Positions 39,859 to 64,000 of a DNA stretch of 64,000 bases are shown in pieces. Source of the stretch: a virus. Its lineage: Duplodnaviria > Caudoviricetes. Location of the stretch: the IMG/VR virus record IMGVR_UViG_3300042013_000103; one strand, given 5' to 3'. The notes beneath the pieces were generated by a model. That model was not told the DNA's origin. It did no database searches and worked only from the letters and a program-made list of their open reading frames with translations. The translations under genes were made by a program, and so were the position numbers. Within the stretch, counting starts at the first letter, position 1. The number at the start of each line of letters is the position of its first letter.

Positions 39859-39868
39859 GGAGTGCCTC

Positions 39869-40849: not shown

Positions 40850-40891
40850 GGTGAAACTCCTGCTGTAGAATATCAAAACATAGTATTGACG

Positions 40892-40925
40892 GGACATAAA
40901 GCCTCCCCGGGGGGAGGCGCATGGT
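40892..40925. terminator. Hairpin with GGACATAAAG flank
   Basis: GCCTCCCC-GG-GGGGAGGC. Confidence 0.6.
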
Positions 40926-45671: not shown

Positions 45672-45764
45672 GTCTACGTTCCTTTAATGAAGAGAGTATT
45701 CGTCTATGGGACATTACGTCTCATCGAAATAAGACTCATAAATAAGGGCAGAACCCAAGCGGGA

Positions 45765-45800
45765 CGGCATAAAAGGCCCCTCCCCGAAGGGAAGAGCCCA
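45765..45800. terminator. Hairpin with CGGCATAAAAG flank
   Basis: ggcccCTcCCC-CGAA-GGGaAGagcc, imperfect stem. Confidence 0.55.
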
Positions 45801-45806
45801 GGTGAA

Positions 45807-46661: not shown

Positions 46662-46706
46662 AAATCTATCCTTCTAGGTTTCAGTGAAATGTACTGCGGG
46701 TCAACG

Positions 46707-48536
46707 TCACACGGCTGGTGAAACGTGACTCTGTCTCAGGTAGGCCCAGTCGGTGCCGATCACACCTCCGGACCCGGTGGTTAACCGCTTGTGCCCGGTG
46801 AGCAGCATGGAGTTGGCGTCGAGGACCCCGTCCGTGCGTTCCACCAAGTCCCCTTGGGTAAAGGAACCGGCGTTGCCTGGCAGCGCATCCGACACCAGCT
46901 TGATCCGGCTACCGACGAAACGAATGAAACTGCCCATGCTGTTGATGGTGTTCATGGGACCGGCCGCGCGCGTTAGCCACAACACACCATTGACCGCATT
47001 GCCGTTGTCAAACATGAACGTGCTGCCCAGCGAATGGATGTCCACGTAGTGCGTGTACGTCCCGGCGACCGTGCCACGGTAGAGGCGAATGATCCCGTTG
47101 CGAGGAGACGTTGCAAACCCCACGTTGAGTACGTTCATCTTGTCCGCTTCGGCGACCAAGCTGGTTTCGGCGTTGACTGGGTTACGGCCCAAGGCACGTC
47201 CTGCGTCGTACAGCACCTGCACGTTGTAGTAGTAAGTGCCCACCGCCACTTTCCATTGGTTCACCCCAGTGCCGCGTACGCCCACTGCTTCCACTCGTGC
47301 CGAGGCAATGCCTTGGAACGTCGCATCGGCCATCCGTACACCGTGATCCAACGAGACAATGTTTGGAATGTCCACCACGCTTTTACGCGAGGTCAGGTAG
47401 GAGTAATTGTTGAAGCTCGGTACGGGGGTGATACCGTCCGCTTGGCAGATACGAATACCCGCCTGTTGATCACGCTGGAAGTCACCACGCACGGTCCACT
47501 GCTGCACTGCGTTGTCCACGATCAAGGACACCGAGTCCCCTTGCTGCACATGGAACCCCGACCAGTCCATGAGGTCTTCCACGTTCCGGAACCGGGTGTT
47601 CTGGAGCTTGACGGTAAACCGGGATTCGTTTGACGCCGAGGCAAAGGTCCCTTGGGTGATGATCGGGATGCGAGTGTCCGGCAAAAACTGACTGTCCACG
47701 GTTACGTCGGACGAATCGTAAATGTGCTGGGCGCGTTCGAAGTGCCCACCCACCAAGTTAATGTTGCCACACAGCTCGATCAAGTAATCACCGCCGATGC
47801 AACCTTCCACCGTCCCACCTTGGACGCCCCGCAACCGCATGGCTTTCATCGATTGCGCAGTGGCCACGGTGTACGGGCAGTGGATGTTCTTGGCGATGAA
47901 ACCGTCACCCAGCCCTAGGATGTCGAACTGGTAGGACAAGTTTCCCTGGGGGTTCTCGGCGATGATGTCACTCAGGTGGAAACTGTCCGTGTAGAAACCA
48001 GTCGGCCGCATGATGCTCTGGGTCAGGCCGTTGAACTTCAACTGTTCGAACTTCCCGGAACCGAAGCACTTGATTCCCTTGGCCGGGTTGACGCCATTGG
48101 GGTTGGTGAAGTTGCAGCGACTGAACCCACCGGTGTTCATGTTCGGGTAGGGGGTGGTCCAGGTGATCCCGTCCGCAGTGTTGATCATGAACATGCAACC
48201 ATCCACAAACGTACCGGTGTCCAGATGGAAGAACGACACATTGCGGGATTCACAGTCCACCCAGAAACCCGCAGGCAGGAAAACCGTGGACTCTACACCG
48301 TAGTTACCAGCGGGCACAAAGACCCCACGTTTTCCAGCGGCCACTGCCCGCGCAAAGGCCGGTTGCCAATTCTCCCCATCTGCAGGGCGCCAGAAGTCCA
48401 CCAAGCTGGGAGATTCATCCAGGCGATCCGCGATGGAACGGTTACCGTAGTTAATTTCACGTGCACCCTCCGGACCTAACAAGGCCAAGAGGTTGGGCAC
48501 ATACTTTGCCAACTTTGCTAATACGCCGAGAGCCAT
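46707..48536 (-). CDS. Tailspike-like protein, beta-helix (pectate lyase-like), class II anchor
   Basis: Start moved to MALGVLAKLAK (48536, AAGGTGG RBS); W.PAF.RA.A.G...VFVPAGNY entry motif typical of pectate_lyase_3-type tailspikes. Confidence 0.8.
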   Translation of the reverse strand: MALGVLAKLAKYVPNLLALLGPEGAREINYGNRSIADRLDESPSLVDFWRPADGENWQPAFARAVAAGKRGVFVPAGNYGVESTVFLPAGFWVDCESRNVSFFHLDTGTFVDGCMFMINTADGITWTTPYPNMNTGGFSRCNFTNPNGVNPAKGIKCFGSGKFEQLKFNGLTQSIMRPTGFYTDSFHLSDIIAENPQGNLSYQFDILGLGDGFIAKNIHCPYTVATAQSMKAMRLRGVQGGTVEGCIGGDYLIELCGNINLVGGHFERAQHIYDSSDVTVDSQFLPDTRIPIITQGTFASASNESRFTVKLQNTRFRNVEDLMDWSGFHVQQGDSVSLIVDNAVQQWTVRGDFQRDQQAGIRICQADGITPVPSFNNYSYLTSRKSVVDIPNIVSLDHGVRMADATFQGIASARVEAVGVRGTGVNQWKVAVGTYYYNVQVLYDAGRALGRNPVNAETSLVAEADKMNVLNVGFATSPRNGIIRLYRGTVAGTYTHYVDIHSLGSTFMFDNGNAVNGVLWLTRAAGPMNTINSMGSFIRFVGSRIKLVSDALPGNAGSFTQGDLVERTDGVLDANSMLLTGHKRLTTGSGGVIGTDWAYLRQSHVSPAV

Positions 48537-48549
48537 ATATCCACCTTGT

Positions 48550-50295
48550 CTATGTTTGTGTACCCACAATGGTACCGTCTGTATCGCTGGTTGGAGCGCC
48601 ACTCTTTATACGTAGTCGTCCAAGAGCATCCACCCAGAGATAGTAGCCCCCTAATTTCAGAGGCTCAGGCCCATTGTAGGACGATGTAAAAGCCACAGCA
48701 CCAGTCAGGCATCTGATACCAACCCAATCCGTCCCAGCCACGTGGGTACTGCCTGTAGTCAAGCGACGCCAGCCTAGGGTAGTATACGGCGTACCATTGT
48801 TGACCAGTGCAGGTGATTCATTCAGCACCATATCGCCTTGAGTATAACTCCCCGTATTTGGGAACGTACTACCCCAACCAACATGACGGGTGGACAACAT
48901 CACACGTAACCATTGTGCTTGTGGTGATAACCAGACCTGGTCGAACTGACCATCTGTATTGCCTAAGTTCAGTTCTTTACGGAACAGTAAGTTCTTCCCG
49001 TAATAACCTGGTTTATTAGCATAGACCGATGACCAGGCACCTTCGCCGACTTCGTGAATACCCGGATCGATAGCTGAGAAACTATCACGCGTGTATGGAT
49101 CATCAATCAGTGTAGTATAGACATTGTTATTGGCAATACGTCCAGATGACTGATTGCTTGAAATGCCCGTAACTTTAAAACCAATACTGTTATCGATGGT
49201 GTAGTAACCTGATTCAGATACATTGTTCAAACCGATATCAAAACCTTTTACTTGGTCGATTGCCCCATGAATCTGGGCATCTTTCATGTCGTTATTCTTG
49301 ATCTCAAGACCAGTGATTAATGCAACGTTAATATGTGTTGAACCTATGAAAGTGCCGTCAGGTTGCTTACCTGCGCTTTCGAAGTGGCAATTCTGTACCG
49401 CCAAGTTACGCATGTTGCTAGACACGTTAGACAATGAACCTAGGGTATTACTGCCAAAACTTACATGCTCGAACTGTACATTGTCACAGATGTTCCCATC
49501 GTGCAACAACACAGCACCTTTACCAGCCATCCGTTGAATCAAACCATTATGTACTTTCAAATTGGAGCTATTCCACTCATCGCCGGCCCCAGAATTTTTC
49601 GAACCATATACCAAGCCATACTGACCTTGTGGTAAGGTAGCGCCCCCCGAGATATTGAACTTCTCAAGGTCTACGTTAAAGTAGTTGCGGATCTCGATGA
49701 TACGAGATGCAGGGTTAGCAAATGAGTCACAGGAAATACCGTACAGCTGCACTCGGTTAACTCGGTCCAAATGAATGCCACCAATTGGAACAGCGCTGTT
49801 CTGTGCGGTTACTCGGAAATTACTTAACTCAAACTGGGTAATGGGCGTATTGTCTTCAGTGCCCAATCCCAGCACGCTGAGGAAATGGCCCGTACCTGTA
49901 TAGATGATGCGATTCCGGCGAGTATGATTACCAACGATGCTAACACCACGTTGGTCAGTGATCATTGTGTAATCGATGAATAATGGACCTGCGAAGGCTA
50001 CATTGTGGAACTCCCATGGGAGCTCGATGATAAAGCCATTTGCTGCAGCGGCGATCAATGCCTTTTGGAATTTATCTGTATTGATAATACCATTATTGGC
50101 TGAACTCACTCCAAAGCGTTTGATAGATACTCGTTCATCGAGAACTGTAGCAACATCGCCACCTTCTAGTCCTGTACCCGGATAGCTCGGAAAATACCCT
50201 AGGGTAGCTGCACCTTTCGTAGTATCAGTCTTATCCCCTAAGCCGAGTAACATTGGTACGTGCTTTGCCAACTTAGTTAAAACACCGATTGACAT
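48550..50295 (-). CDS. Tailspike-like protein, beta-helix, class II anchor; low GC
   Basis: MSIGVLTKLAK; SIKRFGV....NT..FQKAL..A entry motif; N/S-rich beta-helix rungs; C-terminal YLWVDALGRLRIKSGAPTSDTDG. Confidence 0.8.
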   Translation of the reverse strand: MSIGVLTKLAKHVPMLLGLGDKTDTTKGAATLGYFPSYPGTGLEGGDVATVLDERVSIKRFGVSSANNGIINTDKFQKALIAAAANGFIIELPWEFHNVAFAGPLFIDYTMITDQRGVSIVGNHTRRNRIIYTGTGHFLSVLGLGTEDNTPITQFELSNFRVTAQNSAVPIGGIHLDRVNRVQLYGISCDSFANPASRIIEIRNYFNVDLEKFNISGGATLPQGQYGLVYGSKNSGAGDEWNSSNLKVHNGLIQRMAGKGAVLLHDGNICDNVQFEHVSFGSNTLGSLSNVSSNMRNLAVQNCHFESAGKQPDGTFIGSTHINVALITGLEIKNNDMKDAQIHGAIDQVKGFDIGLNNVSESGYYTIDNSIGFKVTGISSNQSSGRIANNNVYTTLIDDPYTRDSFSAIDPGIHEVGEGAWSSVYANKPGYYGKNLLFRKELNLGNTDGQFDQVWLSPQAQWLRVMLSTRHVGWGSTFPNTGSYTQGDMVLNESPALVNNGTPYTTLGWRRLTTGSTHVAGTDWVGIRCLTGAVAFTSSYNGPEPLKLGGYYLWVDALGRLRIKSGAPTSDTDGTIVGTQT

Positions 50296-50301
50296 AGGTT
50301 C

Positions 50302-50359
50302 ACCTCAAAATTTATCAGGGGGTTAGGGGAGGAACCTAGCCTCCCTTCCAGTTACACAA
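50302..50359. repeat. Intergenic direct repeat, copy 1 (terminator-like plus RBS)
   Basis: acctcaaaatttatcaggg..ttaggggag..tagcctccc..gttacacaa, matching 50669-50723. Confidence 0.8.
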
Positions 50360-50391
50360 CGGGCCCGAAACCCCTTAATGTGCGCTAGCCC

Positions 50392-50664
50392 TCATGGCTT
50401 AGGGTACCTGTCCTTGACAGACTGAACCAAAAGCCGCATGTCGTCCGCTTCGGTACCGCCTTTCCACAACGCATCCAGTTGATCCCGGATCGGAGGATAC
50501 GCGGCATAGCGCAACGCTTCGTAATCCGACGCCAGCACCACCGAACCTTTAACAGTAGTGGCCACTTCCACGTCCGCCTCCACCGCGCCTTCTGGCAGTC
50601 TCTCGGTGACCTCCCAATCCCCCACGCACAGCAGTTTCCCGTCCAGCAAATATACCTTAGCCAT
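50392..50664 (-). CDS. Small tail fibre assembly/chaperone-like protein
   Basis: 90 aa; Y..LR..AYPPIRDQLDALW....VK.RYPK is a common phage fibre chaperone ending; GAGG RBS. Confidence 0.7.
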   Translation of the reverse strand: MAKVYLLDGKLLCVGDWEVTERLPEGAVEADVEVATTVKGSVVLASDYEALRYAAYPPIRDQLDALWKGGTEADDMRLLVQSVKDRYPKP

Positions 50665-50668
50665 AACT

Positions 50669-50723
50669 ACCTCAAAATTTATCAGGGTTAGGGGAGATCT
50701 AGCCTCCCCCTCAGGTTACACAA
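50669..50723. repeat. Intergenic direct repeat, copy 2
   Basis: Matches 50302-50359; includes the last codons and stop of the 50716 gene. Confidence 0.8.
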
Positions 50724-53052
50724 TGACCCGGACACTGTAACGCTCAAGCGTCATTATATCGGTGCCCACCGCCAACTGACCAGTGATGGTCACCGAAGCT
50801 GTCTGAGCCGTGTCAATGGCCGAGGTGTACGGTGCGTTAGCGTTAGTACCCCCTTGCGCTTGGTTGCTTGCCGCTTCACCCAGTTGACTATTGGCGACCC
50901 CACGGTTTTGCAGTTTCTTGACAAACGCCGCCGAGGCAGTCGCAGTAGCGGTGGTCGAGAAGAAGGCACCTCCTCCCAACCGATAACGCATTGTCTTGGT
51001 GTTTGCGCTGTTGCTGTAGCTGAACACCGCCTCCACTTCGAGGATGCCATTAAGGCCCATCAGGCCAGGCGGGATCGCCACGGTGACGAACGTGTACTCC
51101 GTGGTGATCGTACCCGGGTGTGGTCGTGCTACCGCGCTGGTTTCCAGCACGATGGTCTTGGGCTCCGCACCGTAACTGCGTGCCAACTCGACCCACACCG
51201 CACCGTCAAACTGGAGGGTCAGTGTTGCCTTCGCATTCTTTGGCGTAAAATCACGTCCATCCTGCAAATAGATGCTGCCGTTACTGGCAATGGTGGTCAG
51301 GTTGTTGGAGAACGAAAGCCGCAGGACTTGTTTGGTCTTACCCCCCAGGATGTTGGTCACCGTCAATGGAGTCTGGTTGTTGAAGTTCATGTTATCGATC
51401 GAGTCTGACGCCCACGCACCACCCATGGAAATGCTTGGCGTGGTTTGACCCGCGTTGCTGAGGTAACCCCCGGCTGCATAGCGGGAGAACTGTTCGATCG
51501 CCGCATCGTTGAACTGCACCAAGGGATTCTGGTTAAATACCGCATCAGTGCATTCGAACTTTTGAATAGCAGGGGCCGGACCGTACGAACAGAAACCCGT
51601 ACCGGAGGTAGCGCCGTAGGTGCGAACCGTACGGATCAACGGACGGATAATGTGCAGGTTGGTCACCAGTTCCGCGTTATACGCCAGACCGTTGCCCATT
51701 GTGTTGAAGGTCATCCCCTCGATGGTGATGCAGTCACCGTCCTGGATGTGAATGGCGTAGCTGTCGTAAGACCCATCTTCAACCAAACCAGATCCAGTGA
51801 TGTAGTTCTGCGAGAACTTAACATTGCGCACTATATCCGTAGATAACAGACCTGGTTCATATTCACGGCTAATTTTGATGGCGTTTCTCTGACAGCCTTC
51901 AAATTGCTGTCCGATAGAAGCGAAAGAAATAACGCCGCCATCCAACCACAAACCATGTTGGTCAGCCAGCGAGGTTTGCCCGCCAATGAAGACCAGTGGA
52001 CCAAACGTCCCTTGTACGGCTCCGCGGCGACCAATACGAATACCATAACCCATTTTGTAACAATCGACGTTGGTGTAACACTTCATGTTCGTCTGACCAA
52101 ACGTCCCGTCGGTGGTGATATCCAGGCCGACCCCTGTCCACGTGCCGTCACCCGTTGCACCGCCACGGATCAATCCGTTGATGTGTGTGGTTTCCCAGGT
52201 GGTCGACTCGACGATGCCATTACCCGCAGGGTTCTGCACTTTAACCGTGTAGTTCTGCAGGAAAATGCTGCCCTGGGACCCCTGCAGGCGCAGAACGTCC
52301 GAAGTCGATGTACCACCCACGAGGTTGAAGTTCATCAGAGAGAAGTAACCGCCCATGCCGGACGGGTTCTCAATGGAGAACAACCCCTTGAGTTCCACCA
52401 GTGGGGTGGTTGACCCATTGACGTGGACAAAAGCCGTACCGGGTTCTTCCAGTGCCCCTGTCGCGTGGCCGTTGCCGTGGCCTAAAATACTGACACGGCC
52501 GGAACGACCTGGCCAATTAGGGTTGAGCGCCGCATCGTAATACAAACGCAGGGTATCGGTTAAGTACTTACGACCAGCCATAGGGCGCAGGATCGAACCT
52601 TTGCGGTTGCAGAAACACAAGGCCGCCTGCAAGGCTGTGGTATTCACCGTCCCTTGCTTAGTGTCCCAGCTATAGTTGCCCACCGCCCCGAAATATTCCG
52701 GGCGCACTTCATCCGTCAACACCCGCTTCCAGCGACCCGCCCCCGCGTTACCCGGTGGATTGACCACCATGCATCCGTCGTGGACTTCGTTACTGTTACC
52801 CTCCCAGTACCAATCCCCTTCACCCCCGTCGCCGACGGTGTAGAAACCACCGACGTAAACGACCACGGTCCGTCCTGCTGCCACCACCGGAATCGGCAAT
52901 AACAAGAGGGACGCCATGTTCATCAAGGAAACCTTGGCCGAGGCCAGGTTGACCCCAGACGGACTCCCGATTTCCCCAGCCCCGTCGCTGGTACTCAACT
53001 TAAACAGGTTGGGGGCTATTTTTGCTAACTTAGTGAGCAGACCGACGCCCAT
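50716..53052 (-). CDS. Tailspike-like protein, beta-helix, class II anchor
   Basis: Start moved to MGVGLLTKLAK (53052, GGAGG RBS); VYVGGFYTVGDGGEGDW...GRWKR head; PEYFGAVG...NTTALQAAL entry motif. Confidence 0.82.
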   Translation of the reverse strand: MGVGLLTKLAKIAPNLFKLSTSDGAGEIGSPSGVNLASAKVSLMNMASLLLLPIPVVAAGRTVVVYVGGFYTVGDGGEGDWYWEGNSNEVHDGCMVVNPPGNAGAGRWKRVLTDEVRPEYFGAVGNYSWDTKQGTVNTTALQAALCFCNRKGSILRPMAGRKYLTDTLRLYYDAALNPNWPGRSGRVSILGHGNGHATGALEEPGTAFVHVNGSTTPLVELKGLFSIENPSGMGGYFSLMNFNLVGGTSTSDVLRLQGSQGSIFLQNYTVKVQNPAGNGIVESTTWETTHINGLIRGGATGDGTWTGVGLDITTDGTFGQTNMKCYTNVDCYKMGYGIRIGRRGAVQGTFGPLVFIGGQTSLADQHGLWLDGGVISFASIGQQFEGCQRNAIKISREYEPGLLSTDIVRNVKFSQNYITGSGLVEDGSYDSYAIHIQDGDCITIEGMTFNTMGNGLAYNAELVTNLHIIRPLIRTVRTYGATSGTGFCSYGPAPAIQKFECTDAVFNQNPLVQFNDAAIEQFSRYAAGGYLSNAGQTTPSISMGGAWASDSIDNMNFNNQTPLTVTNILGGKTKQVLRLSFSNNLTTIASNGSIYLQDGRDFTPKNAKATLTLQFDGAVWVELARSYGAEPKTIVLETSAVARPHPGTITTEYTFVTVAIPPGLMGLNGILEVEAVFSYSNSANTKTMRYRLGGGAFFSTTATATASAAFVKKLQNRGVANSQLGEAASNQAQGGTNANAPYTSAIDTAQTASVTITGQLAVGTDIMTLERYSVRVIV

Positions 53053-53135
53053 ACACACCTCCAAAGTAAAGGGCCCTTATCCAGAGCCCTAGGTAATCAT
53101 TAACTGGCAACAAACCAAGGTTCCGTCCTCTACAC

Positions 53136-55631
53136 TCACATTACGTGCAGGTCACCTAAGGTGCTCGTGAAAAAGTTCCACGTGGCGTCCGGGTTAGTCG
53201 AGCCGATGGGCGTGGCCTTCAATTGATTGCTGTTGTCGATCGACCACGTGAATGACGGGAATGTAGGGCCCCCGCCCGTCAGCAACCCTGCTGCGCTCAC
53301 CTGAACCAACTGCGGCGCTAATGTGGTTGCTCCTTTGGCCACCTGAAGGATGTAGTGCGCGGTCTCTGAAGCATTCGCATCCACTTGTTTCACGGTGATA
53401 AATAGAACACCCGAGAAATTCGTAGCTGTCCCGTCCTGTGATACACATGTACCCACCACGTTACCGGACGTCGTCAGGTTCTTGGAAATCGTCTGAGCGG
53501 CGCTGTCGATCCGCTTCGACGAGTAGTCCCGTTTCATGGTGCTATTCTCGTCATGATTCCCGACACCGATGACAAAGTCGAAAGGGATACCGTTCGGCAC
53601 GTTGACCGTGTTGTAGCGGGCCCGCGCTCCTTTCGATCCTTCCGAGTCAGCAGAAATGGATATTCCGAGTACGTTCGCTACCCCTGACTTCACATAACAG
53701 CCTTCAACCAAGGCTTTGCCTTTATGTACCCGAACACCATACCCGTTGAACTGAAGGCACGTTACATCACGGATTTCCACATCCGGGAGCAGTTCAAGCC
53801 CCCCTGTAGGGGAGATGTCCCCAGTGGCGTCGGAGACGTTATTTAAAAAAGCACTGGTTACCATGACGCCAGCATTCTTGCTGCCGATGGCCGAGCAGTC
53901 TGAAATGACTGAGTTCTGCGCACCATACACAGAGAACGAGTGCGAACCAGAGGTCAGATTTCGTTCCACCACGTCCACATTACTGACGGTGATTTGTTCG
54001 TGATACCCGCCGGATGCTGCCGCAATGATCACAACCCCAGTCGCCGATCCAGCGACCGGCACATCGCCAACATTAATGGTGGATGGAAGCACTTTGATGT
54101 TTCTGGCGATGCCGCACTTGTAAAGACGGTGCGTGCCAGAAAAAGCACCAATAACCTTGGAGATGCCAGCCAGCGCATCCTCTTGGGTCTCGGCGAGTTT
54201 GATGGTGTCAGCATCAATCACGATGGCAAAATAGTAGTTAGCCCTACCAAAGCCACTGATAGCCGTATTGTTCTGCCGGGAGTAAATCAGCGGATAACCA
54301 GTGGTCAGTCCATGAGCTGTGAGAGTGAGTGCATCAGCGGCCGAGGTGGTGAAATCCCATTTACCTAAGGTGTAAGGTTCAATGCCCAGTACTTCCCGCA
54401 TGGTGTCTCTTGAAAACACCTGCATGCTTCCGTTATCAACGTTGCCATATTGCAGTGCAAAGTTCCCGCCCTTTTCACACACCAGCTTAGAGAAGCAGTT
54501 GGTCGAAGGTCGATTGTACGGGTAGAACGCACTCACCCCTAACGCGCCGCCCAGTGCCGTACCATCCGAAATGATCTTAAGATCAATAAAAAGTCCGTCT
54601 ACGTTATCAATCAAAATGCCATGTTCCGCGTGAGTGCCAATCCTCGCGATGGTGAATCCCTTAAGAACGATGTTGCTTAGGCGCCCCCCAGTAAACGGGC
54701 TGGCTATGAACAATTTTCCTGAAGATGAGAACTTACAATGGATTTCTGGGGAGTAACTATCATCGCCCAAAATGTCCATGGAGGACCATGCGCGGATAGT
54801 TTCGGTGATTAGATATTTCTTGTTCTTACCCAGCAGTATTGGAACCCCAGCCGCTTTAGCGAGAAGGAACGCGCCAGTGCAGTCTGTACCGGTTTGAGTG
54901 ACCGGATCATAGTCGCCAACAGCACCGAACAGCTCGATTGGTCGCCGAACGCCAGCAAGAACCGAATAGACCGTGGCTGGCGTTCCACCCTCTAACGGGA
55001 ACCCTACTTCCTCCGCTCCATTTGGTGACGTCAGGGTTTGACGCAGGGTGATGTCTTCGGCTTGTATCAACTTACCTTGGTCTGTTGCCCACGTGCCGGT
55101 AGTAAAGGGCAGGGCGGCGCGCACGGGACGGTAGTTGACATCCAGATACCGCACCACTTGGGTGGACCGCACCAGTTCGATGCCGGCAGAATAGGGAACT
55201 TCAGCTTCCAGCCCCAGCGACTCCAGGTAAGACAGATAGTCTTGAGTGCGTTTCTCTTTCTCGGCATCAAACAACGTGTCCAGTTGTTCGAACAGGTGAT
55301 CGTAGCGCGCATTCGTGATGACACGCATTTGCTGCCCATCGGCGTAGATTTCCGGGGTCACCAAGGTAAACTTGTGCATGGTGTCCACGGTAAAAGCGTA
55401 TTCAATCGCACCCTCCACCCACAATACCATTCCCGCAGTGGTGACCGAGGGGTCACCCGAGATGACACCGACGTCGTACTGGGTTTGACCCTGCACGAAG
55501 GTAAATGGGTAGGCGGCATTGACCTTGAGCTTGGCGGTGGCGACGGTTAGGACGTCACTGGCCATTTGGGTGAGTTCGGCGGTGCTAGCGGCAAGCTCGG
55601 TGATTTCCTGCGCCAGTTGTTCATAGGACAT
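53136..55631 (-). CDS. Tailspike-like protein, class I anchor plus Tail_spike_N-like domain plus beta-helix
   Basis: MSYEQLA; YSAG...QVVRY...Y....LPFTTGTW..D......DITLRQ; ELFGAVGD...DCTGAF entry motif; GGAGG RBS. Confidence 0.82.
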   Translation of the reverse strand: MSYEQLAQEITELAASTAELTQMASDVLTVATAKLKVNAAYPFTFVQGQTQYDVGVISGDPSVTTAGMVLWVEGAIEYAFTVDTMHKFTLVTPEIYADGQQMRVITNARYDHLFEQLDTLFDAEKEKRTQDYLSYLESLGLEAEVPYSAGIELVRSTQVVRYLDVNYRPVRAALPFTTGTWATDQGKLIQAEDITLRQTLTSPNGAEEVGFPLEGGTPATVYSVLAGVRRPIELFGAVGDYDPVTQTGTDCTGAFLLAKAAGVPILLGKNKKYLITETIRAWSSMDILGDDSYSPEIHCKFSSSGKLFIASPFTGGRLSNIVLKGFTIARIGTHAEHGILIDNVDGLFIDLKIISDGTALGGALGVSAFYPYNRPSTNCFSKLVCEKGGNFALQYGNVDNGSMQVFSRDTMREVLGIEPYTLGKWDFTTSAADALTLTAHGLTTGYPLIYSRQNNTAISGFGRANYYFAIVIDADTIKLAETQEDALAGISKVIGAFSGTHRLYKCGIARNIKVLPSTINVGDVPVAGSATGVVIIAAASGGYHEQITVSNVDVVERNLTSGSHSFSVYGAQNSVISDCSAIGSKNAGVMVTSAFLNNVSDATGDISPTGGLELLPDVEIRDVTCLQFNGYGVRVHKGKALVEGCYVKSGVANVLGISISADSEGSKGARARYNTVNVPNGIPFDFVIGVGNHDENSTMKRDYSSKRIDSAAQTISKNLTTSGNVVGTCVSQDGTATNFSGVLFITVKQVDANASETAHYILQVAKGATTLAPQLVQVSAAGLLTGGGPTFPSFTWSIDNSNQLKATPIGSTNPDATWNFFTSTLGDLHVM

Positions 55632-55654
55632 AATGCCTCCGTGTTAGCAAGGTA

Positions 55655-55676
55655 AAGCCCCCGTCACAGGGGGCTT
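55655..55676. terminator. Hairpin between tailspike genes
   Basis: AAGCCCCC-GTCACA-GGGGGCTT. Confidence 0.7.
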
Positions 55677-55685
55677 AGGTAACGA

Positions 55686-58319
55686 TTAACAAGCAAGCCA
55701 GAGCGCGCCGTCCCACACCAGGTTCAAGGCGGTTTGTGCTGCGATCGCCCGACTGGCTGTGAGGTTAGTGGTGCCCCCCGCGGGCATGGTCAGCACCGCC
55801 GTCCCGGCATTGATGATAGTCATGCGTTGCCCGGCGTGTTTACCGCCGTCCGGCGTAGCCAGGGTGTAGGGCCCGCCCGAGAGTTTCAGGGTGATGTCAC
55901 CGTACAAGGTACCGGTCGCAACGAATTGTCCTGATGCGGTCAACACTCGTGCGATGAAGTTGCTGGTGGTGCCGAGTTGACTGTTGATGTACCGGTAGGC
56001 AATCGAGGTCTGGCCACTCTTGGTCCCTTCGGTATGCCGATCCACTTCCACTTTACGGAAGGTGACCTTAAACGCATCATCAATCAACTGCCCTTCACAG
56101 ATTGCCTGTGAGGTTACCTCAGCCGGTGCCCCGATGATGCGCATATCGGCGATGTCAATGTCGGTGAACGCACTGGTGATCGACCAGCACCGCACGTTGG
56201 TCAAGGTTGGACTGACCTGCGACAAGTCAAAGGTAACAGTCCCGGTTGCGCGGCCACGACCGAACGCCAAGCCTTTGGAGTAATCCCCAGCCTCAGGTGG
56301 CATGATAAAGGTAGGGTTTTCCAGGATCAAATGATCGATCCACAACAGGTTCGATTGAGTGATAGAACTAAACTTACCACCTTTAATGGTCACCTTGTCG
56401 ATGGTACGGCCCGCAGCCCCTGAGTTGATGACCGCTTGTGAGGTCACTCCTCGTGCTTCGCAGTTGATCAACGTTACGTTGCTCGTCTCGTTGGCGTAGG
56501 TGGAAATGAACGAGAACCCCACCCGCGTTTGAGCCGCAATACAACCGTTGAACACGCCATTACGCCCGCGCATTTGGAAACCGGCACCACTGCTTTGTGG
56601 ACCCCGAACCCCTGCATGCGCCGTGCAGTTGTGGAACTCAATGGAATCCGCCAGTTCGTGCGCATCAAACGGAGCGTTGGTGCAACCCATGCCAGTGCAG
56701 TCGCTGACTTTAGTAGCATAGGTCCGACCATAGCGGTGGGTGTCCGCACTGCCTGCGACTGGAACCCGGCTGGTGCCCGTGGTGTAGCCGTGACGACAAC
56801 CCATGAAGTGGGACGCCGTGACCGCACCAAACGCACATGACTTGTCCGAGATGCCGTAGCCGTACCGAAATGTCGCTGGATCGTTGATCAACCGACGAAC
56901 CATGATCCCTTTGGCCTTGTAGCGGAAGATGCTCTGCAGGTTCATGAAAATGCCGTAACCAAATTCCGCGGTCAGGTTTTCAAACTCACAGTTCTGTCCG
57001 TTCACCACCTGCAACAGGTCGGTGTTCCAACCCGCTGCGTTCCCTGTGGCTAAGGTATCGAAGGTAAACCCATACAACCCGATCATGTCGTCAACTTGCC
57101 GACGTGCCCGTACATTGAGGGTGTAGGGATCGCGCAACAGGTGCGTGATGTACACGTCATTGCCCACCACAGCGCCCACGAAGCCAAACTCGCCGGCCCG
57201 TTGCTCAGTGTTGGCCGAACCGAACAACACGTCGTCCGCTACCACTTTGATCACATCGCCGGTGACCCACGTAGGCGTTGTCTCAAAGGACAACTTGGTG
57301 CAGCTGGTGGCCGCATCTTCGCCACTGAAGTCGTACGACGAGGGCTCGGTGGCCACCACCGGGATGATGTCGTCCAAACGACCTTTCAACGTAATGGTTG
57401 GGGCATTCGCAATCTGCAGAAACGTAACGTCACCGCCCGCGTACATCCGCAAGGCCCCGATCCGGGTCGCCCCAGAAGAACGGTAGATCCCTGGGGTGAA
57501 CAACAGTTCCTCGCCCAACGGAACGTCGGTGAACGCTTTGGCGATGGCCGGGGTCCAGTCCCAGGTGTTAGGGTCATTCGCGTCCGGACGGTCCACCACA
57601 GCATCCGAGAATTCCCAGATGTTGTACGGTTGTGCCGACAGCATTTTGCTGACGGTGCTCATGGCCGTGGCCAAGGAACTGCGGGAGAACCCTAAGACCT
57701 CGGATCCTTGGGCCGAATAAAGGAACTGACGCAAGGTGATATCTTCGGCCTGCACCAACTTACCCTGATCACCGGCCCAGGTCGTGGTAGTGAACGGCAA
57801 GGCTGTCCGCAACGGGCGGTAGTTCACTTCTTGGTACCGCACCACTTGGGTTGTCCGCACCAGGCTGATCCCAGCGGCGTAAGGCACCTCGGCCTCCAGG
57901 CCCATTGCCTCTAAGTAGTTCAGGTAATCCTGAGTGCGTTTGGTTTTCTCGACCGTGTACAGGTTGTCGAGTTGTTCAAACATGTGGTCATAGCGGGCGT
58001 TGACTATGATGCGCATCTGTTGGCCGTCAGCATACAGCTCCGGCGTCACCAGGGTAAACTTGTGCATGGTGTCAACAGTGAACGCGTATTCAATTGCGCC
58101 TTCAACCCACAGGGATAAGCCGACCGTAGTGACTGAGGGATCGCCAGAGATCACCCCGACGTCGTACTGGTCTTGTCCAGCCACGAAAGTGAACGGGTAG
58201 GAGGCGTTCACTTTGATCATGGCCGACGCCGCAGTCATGGTCGCTTTGGCTTGTTCGGTTAATTCATCATTACTGGTGGCCAGGTCCGTTACCGCCTGAG
58301 CCAATTGTGCGTACGACAT
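55686..58319 (-). CDS. Tailspike-like protein, class I anchor plus Tail_spike_N-like domain plus beta-helix
   Basis: MSYAQLA; first ~197 aa closely similar to 53136..55631; NIWEF...WDWTPAI..AF...LFTPGIY entry motif. Confidence 0.82.
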   Translation of the reverse strand: MSYAQLAQAVTDLATSNDELTEQAKATMTAASAMIKVNASYPFTFVAGQDQYDVGVISGDPSVTTVGLSLWVEGAIEYAFTVDTMHKFTLVTPELYADGQQMRIIVNARYDHMFEQLDNLYTVEKTKRTQDYLNYLEAMGLEAEVPYAAGISLVRTTQVVRYQEVNYRPLRTALPFTTTTWAGDQGKLVQAEDITLRQFLYSAQGSEVLGFSRSSLATAMSTVSKMLSAQPYNIWEFSDAVVDRPDANDPNTWDWTPAIAKAFTDVPLGEELLFTPGIYRSSGATRIGALRMYAGGDVTFLQIANAPTITLKGRLDDIIPVVATEPSSYDFSGEDAATSCTKLSFETTPTWVTGDVIKVVADDVLFGSANTEQRAGEFGFVGAVVGNDVYITHLLRDPYTLNVRARRQVDDMIGLYGFTFDTLATGNAAGWNTDLLQVVNGQNCEFENLTAEFGYGIFMNLQSIFRYKAKGIMVRRLINDPATFRYGYGISDKSCAFGAVTASHFMGCRHGYTTGTSRVPVAGSADTHRYGRTYATKVSDCTGMGCTNAPFDAHELADSIEFHNCTAHAGVRGPQSSGAGFQMRGRNGVFNGCIAAQTRVGFSFISTYANETSNVTLINCEARGVTSQAVINSGAAGRTIDKVTIKGGKFSSITQSNLLWIDHLILENPTFIMPPEAGDYSKGLAFGRGRATGTVTFDLSQVSPTLTNVRCWSITSAFTDIDIADMRIIGAPAEVTSQAICEGQLIDDAFKVTFRKVEVDRHTEGTKSGQTSIAYRYINSQLGTTSNFIARVLTASGQFVATGTLYGDITLKLSGGPYTLATPDGGKHAGQRMTIINAGTAVLTMPAGGTTNLTASRAIAAQTALNLVWDGALWLAC

Positions 58320-58359
58320 GAAACCTCCGAGGTTTTCAGTTGGCGTCGGCAGAACTTAA

Positions 58360-60210
58360 TTAAGTCAAGTTCGCCATGGCTCTAAAGGTAGCACCGGCCC
58401 CGGCCAGACCAGGTGTTGTGCACACCCACCCCATTGGGTTGTTGAGCGTGGCGCCGGGTTGCCAAACCCGAGTACCCAGTGTGTAGTAGAACCCGTTTGC
58501 CGGGATCACGGTGGAGTAGTGTTCGGTACAGCTGACCATTACCCACTCGGCAGGGGATGCCCCGATCTGGAAAACCCGTAGCAGGGTGATCGCCCCGTAT
58601 TGCGGAACGGTGATGTTGCCCAACCCGTTCAACGAAATGTTCCCGGTGTTGCCGATTGTGATGTTCCCCGTGAGAGGGCGAATAGTCACCGTTTCCCCAG
58701 GGGCTGCGGTGGCCGCGATGTCGGTCAGCTTGATCGATTGATCCGCGGCTGGATTGACCACCACGTACCGGTGGGCTTTAAAATCCAACATGGTCCCGTC
58801 GATGAGCAGTGTCTTGTTAGACGCGGCTTTGTACTTACCAACGGTGTTCCCCGAAGGCATGCCTTTTAGGTTCATGCCTAAGATGGCGTTGAAGTCCACC
58901 GCGGGGTCGAGGTAGTTATCGACGATGCCCTGGGTTTCGTTGGTACCGTCGAACGACAGGTAAGCGTTGCCACTGAGGCTGTACAGGTAACCCTGAGTGA
59001 CGGTCGGTAGGAACCGCGTACCGTCGGCAGCGTTAGGGCAATGGTTCTTCTGCGCATGCACCCTAGCGTTAGCGGCCAAGGTAAACAATTTCCCGATGCC
59101 TTCAAACCAGCATTCTTGAGCGAAGATGGCCCGAACGTTCCGTGCGTACATCCCATACTGGGCCTTCTGCATGGAAAATTGACTGCCAAACGTCACGTTG
59201 ATCGGGGCCAACACCGCCGTGGCCTGCCCGGGGGTGTGCGTTGGGTCTTCGCCTTGACCGCTGGCCGCATCGGCCATGGTTGCTGGGTCCGGGTCCCAAT
59301 CCAACGTAATGCAGCGCCAGGCCGTCACACCATCTCGTCCTTCAGCACTGCCACCCCGGAAGTCGATCTGTCCATGTTGCCCGGTCATGCGCAAGGCTTC
59401 GCCACCCTCAGGGACTTGAAAGAACACCTTGTCGAACGTCAGGAACTGGATCGGGCGTTTGTAGTTACTGTTGGTGTAGCCGCCACGCGTCCAACCACCC
59501 TTATTAAAGTTGGAGAACCGTACATCGCGACATTCCGAGAACCACCACCCGCCATGAAAATACGCTTCGTCCCATTGGGCTTTGGCGTACAGGCCCCATT
59601 GATCAGGGTTGAGTGTCGGTTGAGCATGCCCCGGGATAACACTGCCTTGGAAGTGAATGCCCACGATGTGAGACGACGACACCGCTCCGCGTTCGATCTC
59701 CACCATGCCATACGGCACCGTGGAAGTCCGTGGCAACGCTGTGATGTACGTGCAACTCGACCCGTCACCGAGATCGCTCACCGAATGCAACTTGGTGAAC
59801 ACGGTGTGCGGATACGTGCCGGACGGGTATTTCACCCAACCACCGCCCTTGGATTTTACGTAGGCTGTGGCCGCGTTTCGAGCGGGGGTCCAATCCCACG
59901 TACTGGGTGACACCCCCGGTTTGTCGGTGATGCGGTCCGCGTATTCCCAGATGTTCACGGTGAGGCCCGACAACATGAGGCTAACGTTGGTGATGGTTTC
60001 GGCCAGGACCGTACGCTCGAAGCCCAGTTTCTCAGCCCCATCGGGATTAGTCAGTTCAGAGATGGCCGTAGATACCGCCACCTCTGCAGCCTGTTGCGCC
60101 TGGTCGCGGGCTTCAAACACCTCGTTCTTAGCCTGTATAACCGTGTTCTTTAAATCGTTATTGATGACGCCCAATGCGTCAATAGATGCCGCTAGTTGAT
60201 CGTACGACAT
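58360..60210 (-). CDS. Tailspike-like protein, class I anchor plus beta-helix
   Basis: MSYDQLA; VNIWEY...WDWTPA.NAA...GGGWVKYPSGTY entry motif; C-terminal GWVCTTPG. Confidence 0.82.
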   Translation of the reverse strand: MSYDQLAASIDALGVINNDLKNTVIQAKNEVFEARDQAQQAAEVAVSTAISELTNPDGAEKLGFERTVLAETITNVSLMLSGLTVNIWEYADRITDKPGVSPSTWDWTPARNAATAYVKSKGGGWVKYPSGTYPHTVFTKLHSVSDLGDGSSCTYITALPRTSTVPYGMVEIERGAVSSSHIVGIHFQGSVIPGHAQPTLNPDQWGLYAKAQWDEAYFHGGWWFSECRDVRFSNFNKGGWTRGGYTNSNYKRPIQFLTFDKVFFQVPEGGEALRMTGQHGQIDFRGGSAEGRDGVTAWRCITLDWDPDPATMADAASGQGEDPTHTPGQATAVLAPINVTFGSQFSMQKAQYGMYARNVRAIFAQECWFEGIGKLFTLAANARVHAQKNHCPNAADGTRFLPTVTQGYLYSLSGNAYLSFDGTNETQGIVDNYLDPAVDFNAILGMNLKGMPSGNTVGKYKAASNKTLLIDGTMLDFKAHRYVVVNPAADQSIKLTDIAATAAPGETVTIRPLTGNITIGNTGNISLNGLGNITVPQYGAITLLRVFQIGASPAEWVMVSCTEHYSTVIPANGFYYTLGTRVWQPGATLNNPMGWVCTTPGLAGAGATFRAMANLT

Positions 60211-60225
60211 AATGCCTCCACGGCT

Positions 60226-60987
60226 TCAAAAAGCGGTGATTCCGTAATTATCAGCTAACAGTTCGCTCAGGTAGGCCATGTTTTCATCAACTTGTGCCTG
60301 CGTAAGTATTACGTTTTGAAGGGCTACTAGCCCAACGTTCGACGTGCCGGTCTCAACCGATGGGGATGACCCGATCCGCAGTGTATCGCCGGTGTATACA
60401 GTCCTTGAAACCGATGCTGACGGGGCGGTCCATGTGGTTGTTCCGTTCTTGCGCCAGCCGGTCTTAGCTACACCGGTGGAATCGGTGATGGCTGCGAAAC
60501 CATTCCAAGCATCGGCTGCGCCGGCTACTGACAGCGCTGCGGCTTGGCCAGAGGTGGCCAAGGTCCTGTCGAATCGGTTGAGCAAGAGGTTTGGTTCTTC
60601 CCAGGTGAATGCATCACCCCGGTAGTTGCCACCAGTGTATCGTCTATTACTAACCAAAACCGATCGATCGGCACTCGCCGCCGCTAAGGATGGCTTGGCG
60701 ATTACCGTCCAAGTACGATCCGCGCCGGTCGTAATACCGGTATCGAAATAGTTAGCCGCGCTAAGGGTTGCTCCGAAGGCACCCATAACCGGAGCACCCG
60801 CAGCCACCAGCGGCTTGGTGCTATCTGCGAAATTTCGGAGTGATGCGCTGGCGCTTCCCCCTAGCAGATATAATCCAACGAGGCCCGCAGGATTCGGCAG
60901 GCTGATGTCAAGAAAACTCAGCAGGTTAGGGTGATTCCCTGGAAGAACCACTGCATCACCAAGCTTTAAATAATTTGAAATTGCCAT
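60226..60987 (-). CDS. LamG/concanavalin-like beta-sandwich protein, probable partner of the SGNH tailspike
   Basis: 253 aa, beta-rich; NYFDTG..T.T.I...LRIG...L....LT..Q; starts 7 nt after the SGNH gene stop. Confidence 0.6.
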   Translation of the reverse strand: MAISNYLKLGDAVVLPGNHPNLLSFLDISLPNPAGLVGLYLLGGSASASLRNFADSTKPLVAAGAPVMGAFGATLSAANYFDTGITTGADRTWTVIAKPSLAAASADRSVLVSNRRYTGGNYRGDAFTWEEPNLLLNRFDRTLATSGQAAALSVAGAADAWNGFAAITDSTGVAKTGWRKNGTTTWTAPSASVSRTVYTGDTLRIGSSPSVETGTSNVGLVALQNVILTQAQVDENMAYLSELLADNYGITAF

Positions 60988-60993
60988 GTAAGT

Positions 60994-63018
60994 TTACCTG
61001 TCGTTAAGAAACAGCGTAGCCAGGCGCCCTGCACTAAGTGCGGCCCCAGAGTTACTTGGATGGAAACCATCATTAAAGCCACCCAAGGCATTCATTTGTG
61101 CCCATGTACCGAACTCGTCATACAGGCTATAAAACTCACAGCCTAGGGAAACCGCAAGCTGTGACAGGGCATCGCGGAACTGGACGAGCGGAACTGTCGC
61201 CACGCCATCAGTCCGCGCTGGGGCGATCAGGATAATGCCCATGTCCGGAACTGCGGCTCGGTAAGCGTTTACCAAGGTCGTTATGTGAGCCTTAAAGTCC
61301 GCAATGGTCACGCCAACACGATAGTCGTTGGTTGAGAGGATGATGCCCAGTAAACTTGGATTCATCTTGGCGGCGTAGTAGCCGATCTGGCTTGCATACA
61401 CCGCGAGATTCTGGGCGATAGCACCCGAGTTGCCGCATTTGCTGAGGACCGCCCCCGAGACGGCTGAGCGGGTAAAATACAACCCGTGTACACGTACAGT
61501 GCCGGTGTTGCCGATGGTCCTGACCTCTATCGTGCGGGGTGTATTGTCGGCCATGCCGGTGAGCTTGACTGACATGGTGGTATCCGTGTTGCCGCAGACC
61601 ACTGTGTTCCATGTGGCTGAGTCAGAAGCCTTGTATTGGAAGGTCCCGTCTAAGTCCTGATAGAAAATCTCAACCTCGGTGGAGGTAACCAGATTGACAA
61701 TGTAGCGTGCATCTGTCGCCGTTGTCCACATCGATCGCCCATCAATCCCACACCCGTGATCTGGGGCTACCCCAGCTAACCCACCCGTGGATGCATCGTA
61801 AGTATTCCATAGGCCCACCAATACGGCGGTTATTCCATTCAACGTATTCGTGCCGGTGTTTATGCTGACCCAACCGTCGGAACTCTTTCCGAATAAGGCG
61901 TAGAGCCTGTCCGCAATTGCTTGAGACATGGGGGATAGCTCAGCCCAGGAATCCCCAGTGATGATCACGTTTACCTGCGATAAACTCCCCGTTCGTAGTT
62001 TCGCAGCGTTAGCGCGGTATTTGTACAACGTTCGCGAGTCTGAATGCGACTTGGCTAAGTTGATGTTGGCGGTAACGTTGGGCAGGATGGCGGAGATCAA
62101 GCTCGGCGACAGACCCGAGGCTGCGAACAGCCCATTCTCCAGCCAAACCGGTACGTTATTAGCCGAATCGACGAAAAGAGGGACCAGCGCATTAGAACTG
62201 TTATTTGTGGGGATTACCCGTTTAAGTCCTACCGCATTAATAACCATATCCAAAAACGACTGTGCGAGTCCTGTGGCCGCTAACATCCCGTTCTCAAGCC
62301 AAACCGGCACGTTCTTTACCGAGTCAACCCAAAGCGGTACACGGTTATTACTGGTAGAGTAAGTTCCTAACTTGTTAGCTACCGCGTTCTGGCTTGGATA
62401 ACGCTTGATTTCCAACGCACTGCCAGCGTCATTTTTATACAGGATCAAGTATTCTGCACTCTCCGCTGAGGGCACACTGAAATACTCCCCGCTTACGGTG
62501 GCGGCGAGGCCTTGGGCCACGGTATCCTTGATGTTATTATTCAACAGGATGGCGTCATGTGCAGCCGCTGCGAGCACGGCGGAAGCTCCTGCCTCCGTTG
62601 CTGATTGCTGTGCCGTTGTCACTAAAGGCACAATGACGTTTTTAGTTTCTTCTACTTCATCCGCCGACTGTTGTACCTCCACCGCCACAGCTTGGACTGC
62701 TGTTTTTGCAGCCAAAGTATCCGCTGCAGATACTGCTGCCGAGTCGCGAGCACTGCCTGCTTGTACTGCAGCAGCTTCTGCGGTGGTTACCCCGGTAGCC
62801 AACGCCAGTGCAGAATCCGCGGCATCGAGCGCAGCCTGTTGGGCCTGTAGGGTCAAGTCTTGCGTTTCGGTGAGCGTCGTCAACACATCCACAGCGAAGC
62901 CTTGTGCTCTGTCGCGGGCGGTTTCCGAGGCCGTGCGCACAGACTCGGCAGCAGCGGTTAATTCGTTATTGCTGGCAGTCAACAAGTCTACCGCAATAGC
63001 AAGAGATTCGTATGACAT
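60994..63018 (-). CDS. Tailspike with SGNH/GDSL esterase domain, class I anchor
   Basis: MSYESLA plus Ala-rich coiled coil; blocks GDSW (I), GNSG (II), STND (III), DGFHP (V). Confidence 0.85.
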   Translation of the reverse strand: MSYESLAIAVDLLTASNNELTAAAESVRTASETARDRAQGFAVDVLTTLTETQDLTLQAQQAALDAADSALALATGVTTAEAAAVQAGSARDSAAVSAADTLAAKTAVQAVAVEVQQSADEVEETKNVIVPLVTTAQQSATEAGASAVLAAAAHDAILLNNNIKDTVAQGLAATVSGEYFSVPSAESAEYLILYKNDAGSALEIKRYPSQNAVANKLGTYSTSNNRVPLWVDSVKNVPVWLENGMLAATGLAQSFLDMVINAVGLKRVIPTNNSSNALVPLFVDSANNVPVWLENGLFAASGLSPSLISAILPNVTANINLAKSHSDSRTLYKYRANAAKLRTGSLSQVNVIITGDSWAELSPMSQAIADRLYALFGKSSDGWVSINTGTNTLNGITAVLVGLWNTYDASTGGLAGVAPDHGCGIDGRSMWTTATDARYIVNLVTSTEVEIFYQDLDGTFQYKASDSATWNTVVCGNTDTTMSVKLTGMADNTPRTIEVRTIGNTGTVRVHGLYFTRSAVSGAVLSKCGNSGAIAQNLAVYASQIGYYAAKMNPSLLGIILSTNDYRVGVTIADFKAHITTLVNAYRAAVPDMGIILIAPARTDGVATVPLVQFRDALSQLAVSLGCEFYSLYDEFGTWAQMNALGGFNDGFHPSNSGAALSAGRLATLFLNDR

Positions 63019-63065
63019 GATTTTTCCTTGTCGGATAAAGGGCCACTGAGTGACCCTGTATTGTG

Positions 63066-64000
63066 TTAACCGCCGTTGCGCTTGGTTACTAGAACGCGCA
63101 CAGACATTGATGGTAGATCTATGGCCGAGGCAGTGTTGTTACGCAAATACACCAACACGTTACCCGTGGTTACTACAAAAGCGTTAACCGCGATCAAACC
63201 CACATCGGCCGAAAAGGATACTTGTACAAAGTCTCCAACTTCGGCACCCAGAATAGCGAAGCTGGGTGCCACTTGGCTGCCCGCTGCAATACTTGGTGCG
63301 TCGTAGGTGAAGCTACCGTAGAGCTGAGCACGCATGGACTGCCGCTTAACGGTTGCGTTGTTCACCACTAGGCCCGTGGTGCCCGTACCGGTGTTACCGC
63401 CTTCGTAACCATTTTGCACGGTAGCTTCAATATCTACCACGAATGTCTGGTTACCGGTTACGCTCTCCATGTGGTTATCGAAGATACGTGCCGTTACCGC
63501 ATTTTGTACCCGGATGCCCAGGCCCGAGCCGGACTGTGCGTTGTCCACACCGATCACGTTGTGGATGTCCACGAGGTTAACGTAGTTAACATCAATGGCC
63601 CCTAAACCATTGCCCCCGATAATCGCACCGTCGACTTTGACCAACCCAGCGTTTTGCAGATAGTTAGCGCCGCCCGAGTTGCTGATGTTCACCCCGTAGT
63701 TATACTGAGCATTCACCTGCACTTTACCGTTGTTACGCACTTCCGTACCTGGTTCAAGGTGTAGGAAACTGACCCCTCGACCAAAGATACCCGAGGCATC
63801 GTTGTCGTTGAACTTACCTTTGGCATGGACCCGGATCAGGTTACCAGTACCGTTGAAGATAGCCAAGCCGGCATGACCACAGGCAGTATGTTCACCTTCT
63901 ACGCGTGCTGTGCCGACGTTAGCAATAACTACCCCGTTACCGAACAGGCCATTGGGGTTACTGCCGATATAACGAATGTTCCACGATTTGCAGTTAGGGT
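63066..64000 (-). CDS. C-terminal part of another beta-helix tailspike; 5' end lies outside the window
   Basis: Hand translation shows the frame open to base 64000 (..SWNIRYIGSNPNGLFGNGVVIANVGTARVEGEH..). G/N/V-rich rungs; C-terminal GA.VGDFV.VS..V.V.L.N.T...IDL domain typical of tailspikes. Confidence 0.8.
   Translation of the reverse strand, partial: PNCKSWNIRYIGSNPNGLFGNGVVIANVGTARVEGEHTACGHAGLAIFNGTGNLIRVHAKGKFNDNDASGIFGRGVSFLHLEPGTEVRNNGKVQVNAQYNYGVNISNSGGANYLQNAGLVKVDGAIIGGNGLGAIDVNYVNLVDIHNVIGVDNAQSGSGLGIRVQNAVTARIFDNHMESVTGNQTFVVDIEATVQNGYEGGNTGTGTTGLVVNNATVKRQSMRAQLYGSFTYDAPSIAAGSQVAPSFAILGAEVGDFVQVSFSADVGLIAVNAFVVTTGNVLVYLRNNTASAIDLPSMSVRVLVTKRNGG

Follow-up and report, generated by a model that had tools for sequence, protein, structure and literature searches.

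The closest described systems are found in jumbo phages of Klebsiella. Phage phiKp24 (vB_KpM_FBKp24) encodes a nucleus-shell protein and a phage tubulin and has a hyperbranched apparatus with 14 tail-fibre proteins of the beta-helix type (PMC8386662, PMC9700779), and in Klebsiella phage Centimanus a phiKZ-type RNA polymerase gene was observed next to a similar depolymerase cluster. The locus examined here lies at 46707-64000 on the minus strand of a 64,000-nucleotide stretch (hereafter the window, the whole of the DNA analysed) of the virus record IMGVR_UViG_3300042013_000103 of IMG/VR, and comprises eight enzymatic genes, seven for beta-helix tailspikes and one for an SGNH esterase; they follow one another in tandem over ~20 kb, including the part of the first gene that lies outside the window. 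The phage is predicted to belong, as phiKp24 and Centimanus do, to the phiKZ-related jumbo myophages of the nucleus-shell-encoding group, and like them it carries many depolymerase-like beta-helix fibres in tandem, whose N-termini are structural and whose enzymatic C-termini vary. It differs from them in that the phiKp24 shell protein clusters with its counterparts in PCH45, a Serratia phage, and PhiEaH1, an Erwinia phage, whereas the backbone here is nearest to D6, Psa21, 201phi2-1 and phiKZ; only one head here is similar, weakly (28% identity), to theirs; they come from clinical or sewage Klebsiella, whereas the present phage comes from the rhizosphere; and the array here is located between a lytic transglycosylase gene and the conserved fibre. 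Several spikes of different glycan specificity, with long N-termini carrying short ones (as proposed here), are also a feature of the Ackermannviridae (CBA120 TSP1-4) and of G7C (gp66 with gp63.1), although these systems have 2-4 spikes and much smaller genomes. With a probability of roughly three in four, the locus represents a variable receptor-binding gene cassette of an uncultured phiKZ-type rhizosphere jumbo phage, in which each product combines an N-terminal module with a swappable head. A multi-enzyme receptor-binding array had been proposed in an earlier note made from the letters of this DNA, and the present analysis supports it.

The region between 41.6 and 64.0 kb forms a single densely packed run of large genes on the minus strand. 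From the end of the window downwards, the array includes the 3' end of a spike gene (63066-64000, its last 310 codons), the gene of an SGNH/GDSL esterase receptor-binding protein of class C (60994-63018), a gene for a 253-residue protein of unassigned function (60226-60987), a class C tailspike gene (58360-60210), two class C1 tailspike genes with different heads (55686-58319 and 53136-55631), a class B depolymerase-like spike gene (50716-53052), a conserved open reading frame (ORF) of 90 codons (50392-50664), a class B beta-helix spike gene (48550-50295) and a further class B spike gene, probably encoding a pectate-lyase-like beta-helix (46707-48536). Every ORF named in the earlier note was found on the minus strand as given there (46707-48602, 48550-50295, 50716-53064, 53136-55631, 55686-58319, 58360-60210, 60994-63018 and 63066 to the end), and the genes at 60226-60987 and 50392-50664 are two additional members of the array that it had overlooked. 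The longest frames at 46707 and 50716 begin upstream of the likely starts, which were corrected to ATG 48536 and ATG 53052, respectively, because these give the conserved N-terminus M-x-x-G-x-L-T-K-L-A-K together with a ribosome-binding site. The array also continues beyond the window, as had been supposed, although in near-identical strains the remainder of a single gene (to ~66.5 kb) is all that follows there. The portion of this gene within the window is 93.5% identical to the C-terminal end of a 1159-residue protein of a relative (L007) and shows one residue difference across the 310 residues shared with a 1152-residue protein, P0225; no placement of P0225 on any contig was found, and an exact 40-mer scan of IMG/VR with the end of the window returned nothing.

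The array paralogues are alike only at their N-termini, where sequence comparison distinguished three classes, A, B and C. Class A is an N-terminus of ~100 amino acids common to the conserved fibre, the small fibre-module protein and the first array gene (the 63066 type), in which an alanine-rich coiled coil of ~500 residues separates it from the head. Class B is a peptide of ~20 amino acids (G-x-L-T-K-L-A-K-x-x-P-x-L-L) that appears disordered in the monomer model of 48550, while class C starts with M-S-Y-x-Q-L-A followed by a coiled-coil helix (residues 3-53 in the model of 58360), and its members diverge into two subtypes after the first ~25 residues. In subclass C1, represented by 53136 and 55686, the class C start is extended by a domain of 211 amino acids that is 75% identical between both proteins. 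Four class C and three class B spikes were counted in this array. The module classes are kept in at least six contigs from different samples (alignments A3, A4 and A5), and the gene order in all array-bearing relatives is A-long, C, B, A-small, fibre. Judged by sequence, a separate predicted particle-binding module is present at the N-terminus; its three classes bear no relation to the heads and persist in the relatives. Neither the class A stalk nor the 211-residue domain of C1 nor the class B and C peptides gave a Pfam or PDB match, and no match to the class B and C anchors was observed in cultured phages. Profile searches against the PDB related class C to generic coiled coils only, and residues 21-54 of class B to the HK620 neck only (E > 1). 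An anchor like that of Sf11 gp13 (Shigella phage, PDB 9OCC) was considered and did not turn up when profiles of the class B and C N-termini were searched against the PDB.

The heads, on the other hand, are mutually unalignable by BLASTP, except for a neck segment shared by 55686 and 58360 and a C-terminal motif shared by 46707 and 48550, which bears out the earlier description of the central regions as not alignable. Domain, structure or homology evidence for a beta-helix was obtained for the head of each gene that had been called beta-helix-like, with 46707 the weakest case. Structure modelling, which the earlier note had suggested, was carried out for 58360 and 48550 as AlphaFold2 monomers from family alignments, followed by Foldseek, and yielded beta-helix folds with tailspike matches. 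The model of 58360 (predicted local distance difference test, pLDDT, 87) is a right-handed beta-helix with an N-terminal helix at residues 3-53, and its best Foldseek matches are the tailspikes of HK620, AS12 and phi29 and AlgE4; the model of 48550 (pLDDT 83) is likewise a right-handed beta-helix, with AlgE4, an alginate lyase and the CBA120 TSP3 and Sf6 tailspikes as the best matches and CBA120 TSP2 also among the matches. Over both models, the best solved matches comprise the tailspikes of HK620, AS12, phi29, Sf6, CBA120 TSP3, Det7 and LKA1 and the glycan enzymes AlgE4 epimerase and alginate lyases. Homologues of the 63066 type contain Glyco_hydro_28, Beta_helix and Tail_spike_N (PF00295, PF13229 and PF18668), and relatives of its head also occur with T7 tail-fibre or P22 head-binding domains; the full-length type, as seen in P0225, consists of a class A N-terminus, an Ala-rich coiled-coil stalk of ~500 amino acids and a GH28-like beta-helix head. 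Homologues of 53136 contain Tail_spike_N and Beta_helix, and its own C-terminal end resembles PDB 6e1r, 'Tailspike protein' (E 1.3e-6). The protein of 55686 combines the 211-residue N-terminal domain and a beta-helix with a Phage_depo_C sandwich (8e-9) and matches a tail-spike PHROG (phrog_27786, 1e-16). In 50716, residues 107-623 share 49-51% identity with tail fibres of the Klebsiella podophages SKP1, Bp5 and K17alpha62, and an orthologue carries Phage_tail_beta. For 46707, language-model features (0.94, 202 shared) point to a cluster related to GH28 and pectate lyases, and 30% identity to a protein of Acinetobacter phage Silvergun was observed; it is probably a pectate-lyase-like beta-helix by these sequence features. 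No direct Pfam match was obtained for the head families of 58360, 48550 and 46707, searching the PDB with single spike sequences yielded almost nothing, and hhalign comparisons of single spikes with the 48550 family profile were uninformative except for the C-terminal motif common with 46707. Residues 530-581 of 48550 form a very widespread C-terminal motif, with more than 100 cluster representatives matching this part only, many of them short proteins; these C-terminal ~50 residues may be a mobile tip or a chaperone-like module.

The SGNH esterase predicted at 60994 in the earlier note is confirmed by matches to Lipase_GDSL_2 (1.2e-9) and Lipase_GDSL (2.8e-5) and by the catalytic blocks, with GDS at residue 355, a STND block at 562-565 and DxxH at 650. 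The protein matches phrog_14987 (6e-93) and consists of a coiled-coil N-terminus and a C-terminal SGNH/GDSL esterase with 33% identity to SGNH tail proteins of Klebsiella phages, its nearest phage relatives being the SGNH tail proteins of Klebsiella and Staphylococcus phages. From these sequence features, it is probably a glycan deacetylase. The gp63.1 protein of G7C is an SGNH-type O-antigen deacetylase that serves as a receptor-binding protein; the likeness of 60994 to it is functional and not one of family membership, as 60994 found no match among PDB sequences. An internal tandem duplication of ~74 nucleotides (76% identity) was also observed at 62111-62340 within the esterase gene, producing two copies of a motif of ~25 amino acids (…VPLWVDS…NVPVWLENG…) between the coiled coil and the esterase. 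The gene of the 253-residue protein (phrog_4390, 1e-26) always stands after the SGNH gene, and the same pair was found in two relatives (L001 and L009). The product gave no tblastn, Pfam or PDB match and is a candidate partner or chaperone of the SGNH protein.

Protein searches retrieved contigs of other samples with the same kind of array, including IMG/VR jumbo contigs of 317 kb (L005/L007) and 284 kb (L014). The 317-kb relative contains orthologues of 63066, 58360, 55686, 50716 and 46707 at 82-93% identity and is without 53136, 48550 and the SGNH pair, in whose stead two other class C spikes are present; orthologues of 46707 in L005, L010 and L014 show 86-88% identity. Differential combinations of heads and modules were observed among these genomes. 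The head of 48550 is attached to class B here and to class C1 in the 284-kb relative (84% identity over residues 27-581), and that of 58360 is attached to class C here and to class A with a stalk in L008, L009 and L014 (77-79% identity). The same heads thus stand on different modules in different genomes, indicating that heads move between genomes and between address classes. The number of spikes per class also varies among the relatives, with 1-3 of C1 and 1-3 of class B. Turnover is visible at strain level in run X2, an independent rhizosphere metagenome, where a contig of the dominant strain (depth ~190) joins 48537 to 50372, and the dominant strain therefore lacks precisely the gene 48550-50295, while contigs with the 48550 gene occur at a depth of ~7-9; in a minor strain of the same run, 60047-62912 (the SGNH pair) is replaced by 1991 other letters. 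The GC content at third codon positions (GC3) of 48550 is 0.445, against 0.66-0.74 for neighbouring genes and 0.72-0.75 for backbone genes, which fits a recent import, as far as composition can indicate one. The 5' ends of the paralogues, including the ribosome-binding sites, are conserved at the DNA level, and two exact 19-nucleotide direct repeats (50302-50320 and 50669-50687, without strand) lie within similar hairpin and ribosome-binding-site elements of ~50 nucleotides (family D16) that flank the 90-codon ORF; the conserved 5' ends and the exact repeat provide homology for exchange. The 90-codon ORF stands upstream of class B genes and is 79% identical to a 90-residue ORF at the equivalent position of L010; its product gave no Pfam match, and a proposed kinship with the DUF4376 protein downstream of the fibre showed no detectable relationship.

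As an additional observation on the relatives, the orthologous spikes between 46707 and 60210 have a GC3 of 0.70-0.74 here vs 0.38-0.51 in L005/L007 at 82-88% protein identity, and the fibre genes have a GC3 of 0.66 here vs 0.34 in the same 317-kb relative. Close relatives thus seem to be at very different base-composition equilibria, with different hosts perhaps as the cause. The DNA of the phage was found in rhizosphere metagenomes of two studies. In addition, run X3, a wastewater library labelled metagenomic RNA-Seq, contained many short contigs 85-99% like the array (44500-64000), indicating that relatives also occur outside the rhizosphere.

The backbone of the phage, whose genome contig measures 308,580 bp, is of the phiKZ type, as had been proposed earlier. 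It encodes two subunits of a split virion RNA polymerase (E 4e-209 and 0), the beta subunit being 64% identical to those of phiKZ/PhiPA3, as well as internal head proteins, with phrog_2986 (4e-209), phrog_3148 and phrog_3201 (both E = 0) among the matches to polymerase and structural genes of the phiKZ type, and the window also encodes a giant gp181-like protein and homologues of UvsX, RNase H and SbcC. The long fibre shows 51% identity to its counterpart in Pseudomonas phage D6 and 48% to the one in Psa21, and downstream of it the genes follow in the order known from these two phages; the backbone is syntenic with D6, Psa21 and 201phi2-1. Megablast of array and backbone against ~50,700 phage genomes returned no match, which, together with the occurrence in rhizosphere metagenomes, identifies an uncultured phiKZ-like jumbo phage. 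The flanks are orthologous to those of the cultured Pseudomonas phiKZ-like phages (D6, Psa21, RVTF4, Viktualia and 201phi2-1), comprising the small class A protein, the fibre and the DUF4376 protein on one side. On the other side, the array in the relatives begins directly after a lytic-transglycosylase-like gene of 194 amino acids, whose product, like the neighbouring protein of 179 amino acids, shares 76-82% identity with its counterparts in D6, Psa21 and RVTF4. Unlike in the present phage, this site is free of an array, of class B or C products and of beta-helix heads in four cultured phages (D6, Psa21, Viktualia and RVTF4), where the lytic transglycosylase gene is followed directly by small class A proteins and the fibre. 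Since the flanking genes adjoin without the array in these four phages, the array constitutes an insertion into the fibre module, and its downstream boundary is marked by the small class A fibre-module gene at 45807-46661, whose counterpart in D6 and Psa21 is a pair of neighbouring small genes.

From these observations we infer incorporation into the virion, trimerisation, a docking hierarchy, the substrates and the host. Going by multi-spike phages that have been solved and modelled, each spike would be directed by its module to a particular site on the baseplate-fibre complex, and spikes with large N-terminal parts (long class A and C1) are probably scaffolds for the short-peptide spikes; in phiKp24, similarly, the protein with the longest N-terminal part has been proposed as the primary anchor (PMC8386662, PMC9700779). 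A particle equipped in this way could present several glycan specificities and attach to hosts (probably Pseudomonas) that differ in their O-antigens, capsules or exopolysaccharides, the heads binding and cutting or deacetylating different surface glycans. Head exchange would widen or shift the host range, and the conserved 5' gene ends and intergenic repeats probably act as homology arms by which heads are exchanged, inserted and deleted between related phages. A more specific and rather doubtful proposal is a three-address docking code (A, B and C) particular to the rhizosphere Pseudomonas-type phiKZ clade, in which the stalked primary spike and C1 would serve as scaffolds and heads would hop between address classes.

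Several observations weigh against the reading as a receptor-binding cassette. Association with the virion is deduced from gene position and shared N-termini; the structure models of 58360 and 48550 are monomers, and the trimers are putative; the fold of 46707 is indicated by language-model features and weak homology only; and several heads are closest to Klebsiella phage proteins, although Pseudomonas is indicated by the backbone and by a small number of segments. CBA120 and G7C branch via T4 gp10-like domains, and neither these nor another known branching domain was detected in the anchors here by Pfam and PDB sequence searches. More spikes per class were also found than obvious sites, so that not all need be on one virion. 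The failure to recognise a branching domain also counts in favour of an unlikely but not negligible alternative, in which spikes of one anchor class compete for few sites and virions carry subsets of them, a form of bet-hedging in place of one hyperbranched apparatus. Such loading would accord with only three anchor classes for at least eight proteins and with the variable numbers of C1 and class B spikes among relatives. On the other side, solved or modelled multi-spike systems such as phiKp24 (PMC9700779) display many spikes together by hierarchical docking, and the two subtypes of class C after ~25 residues would permit distinct sites. Complex prediction with three copies each of the C1 N-terminal domain and of the class B peptide also gave a score of 0.35 vs 0.02 for the best control, with a partner pLDDT of at least 56 and agreement between runs in at least 31% of contacts. 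When the complex tool was calibrated, 51 of 78 solved complexes and 2 of 108 mismatches attained its mark, and scores of 0.60 or less comprised only 5 of the 78 solved complexes and all 4 mismatches that passed; the value of 0.35 lies within this low range, and the support for C1-class B docking is therefore weak.

Far less probable than subset loading is that the genes encode non-virion proteins, either soluble free depolymerases released at lysis or decaying cargo. Free depolymerases are known for some phages, and incorporation here is deduced; however, the reading frames of the array are all intact, conserved N-terminal modules are present on all of the proteins, one of them common to a structural fibre, the genes sit within the fibre module, share its strand and are separated by short spacers, and the orthologues are kept at 82-93% identity across relatives. 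That the assembler strung strain variants of one or two spike genes in tandem has next to no likelihood, even though contigs of the source-like run break at 51.3-52.8 kb, a site of strain variation, because independent contigs from other samples and assemblers (L004, L009, L010, L014 and L005/L007) show the same neighbouring genes, so that the tandem order is real, and heads unrelated in sequence are not collapsed alleles.

Downstream of the array, the long repetitive tail fibre of 1344 amino acids (41637-45671) has a class A N-terminus and is of the phiKZ/201phi2-1 type (phrog_3904, 8e-188); about a dozen copies of a short repeat matching many tail-fibre PHROGs were observed in it. It is followed by the DUF4376 protein gene (40926-41576), with 54% identity to the protein of cultured relatives. 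At 37035-40993 on the minus strand, three tandem paralogues of ~310 amino acids and a virion-protein homologue of 374 amino acids are present without a Pfam match, and in RVTF4 three similar 'virion structural protein' genes also follow the fibre. Scans for sigma-70 promoters and terminators remained at chance level. GC-rich hairpins followed by TTTAC or TTTAT, some of them after TTACCTA, were observed at several intergenic junctions of the array on the minus strand (53070-53090, 55658-55672 and 63030-63050) and may represent phage-specific terminator or promoter elements.

The multi-depolymerase array as a kind of system is already known from the Klebsiella jumbo phages, and the earlier note's suggestion of a system perhaps undescribed for this lineage fails at the family level in view of phiKp24 and Centimanus; it survives within the Pseudomonas-type branch, where the four cultured relatives examined lack the array at this site. 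No description of a spike array in Pseudomonas phiKZ-like phages was found in the open-access literature, to which the search was limited. What is new here is the Pseudomonas-type rhizosphere clade, three anchor modules without annotation, a primary spike on a coiled-coil stalk, the movement of heads between anchor classes and the strain-level turnover of the cassette. If the docking code outlined above were true, the same enzyme could be moved to another baseplate position, and the anchors would represent a new, sequence-unrelated solution to spike branching; phiKZ-type phages outside Klebsiella could also switch from appendage-based to glycan-based adsorption via one insertion hotspot. The heads provide a set of uncharacterised predicted glycan-active enzymes, and three short, well-delimited modules with the same head on different ones would offer a design rule for retargeting jumbo phages in plant-disease biocontrol. 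The gain, loss and replacement of cassettes in natural populations makes it possible to measure how fast host range evolves in giant phages, and multi-depolymerase adsorption, known from jumbo phages of Klebsiella, would be extended to the Pseudomonas-type phiKZ-like phages associated with soil and plants.

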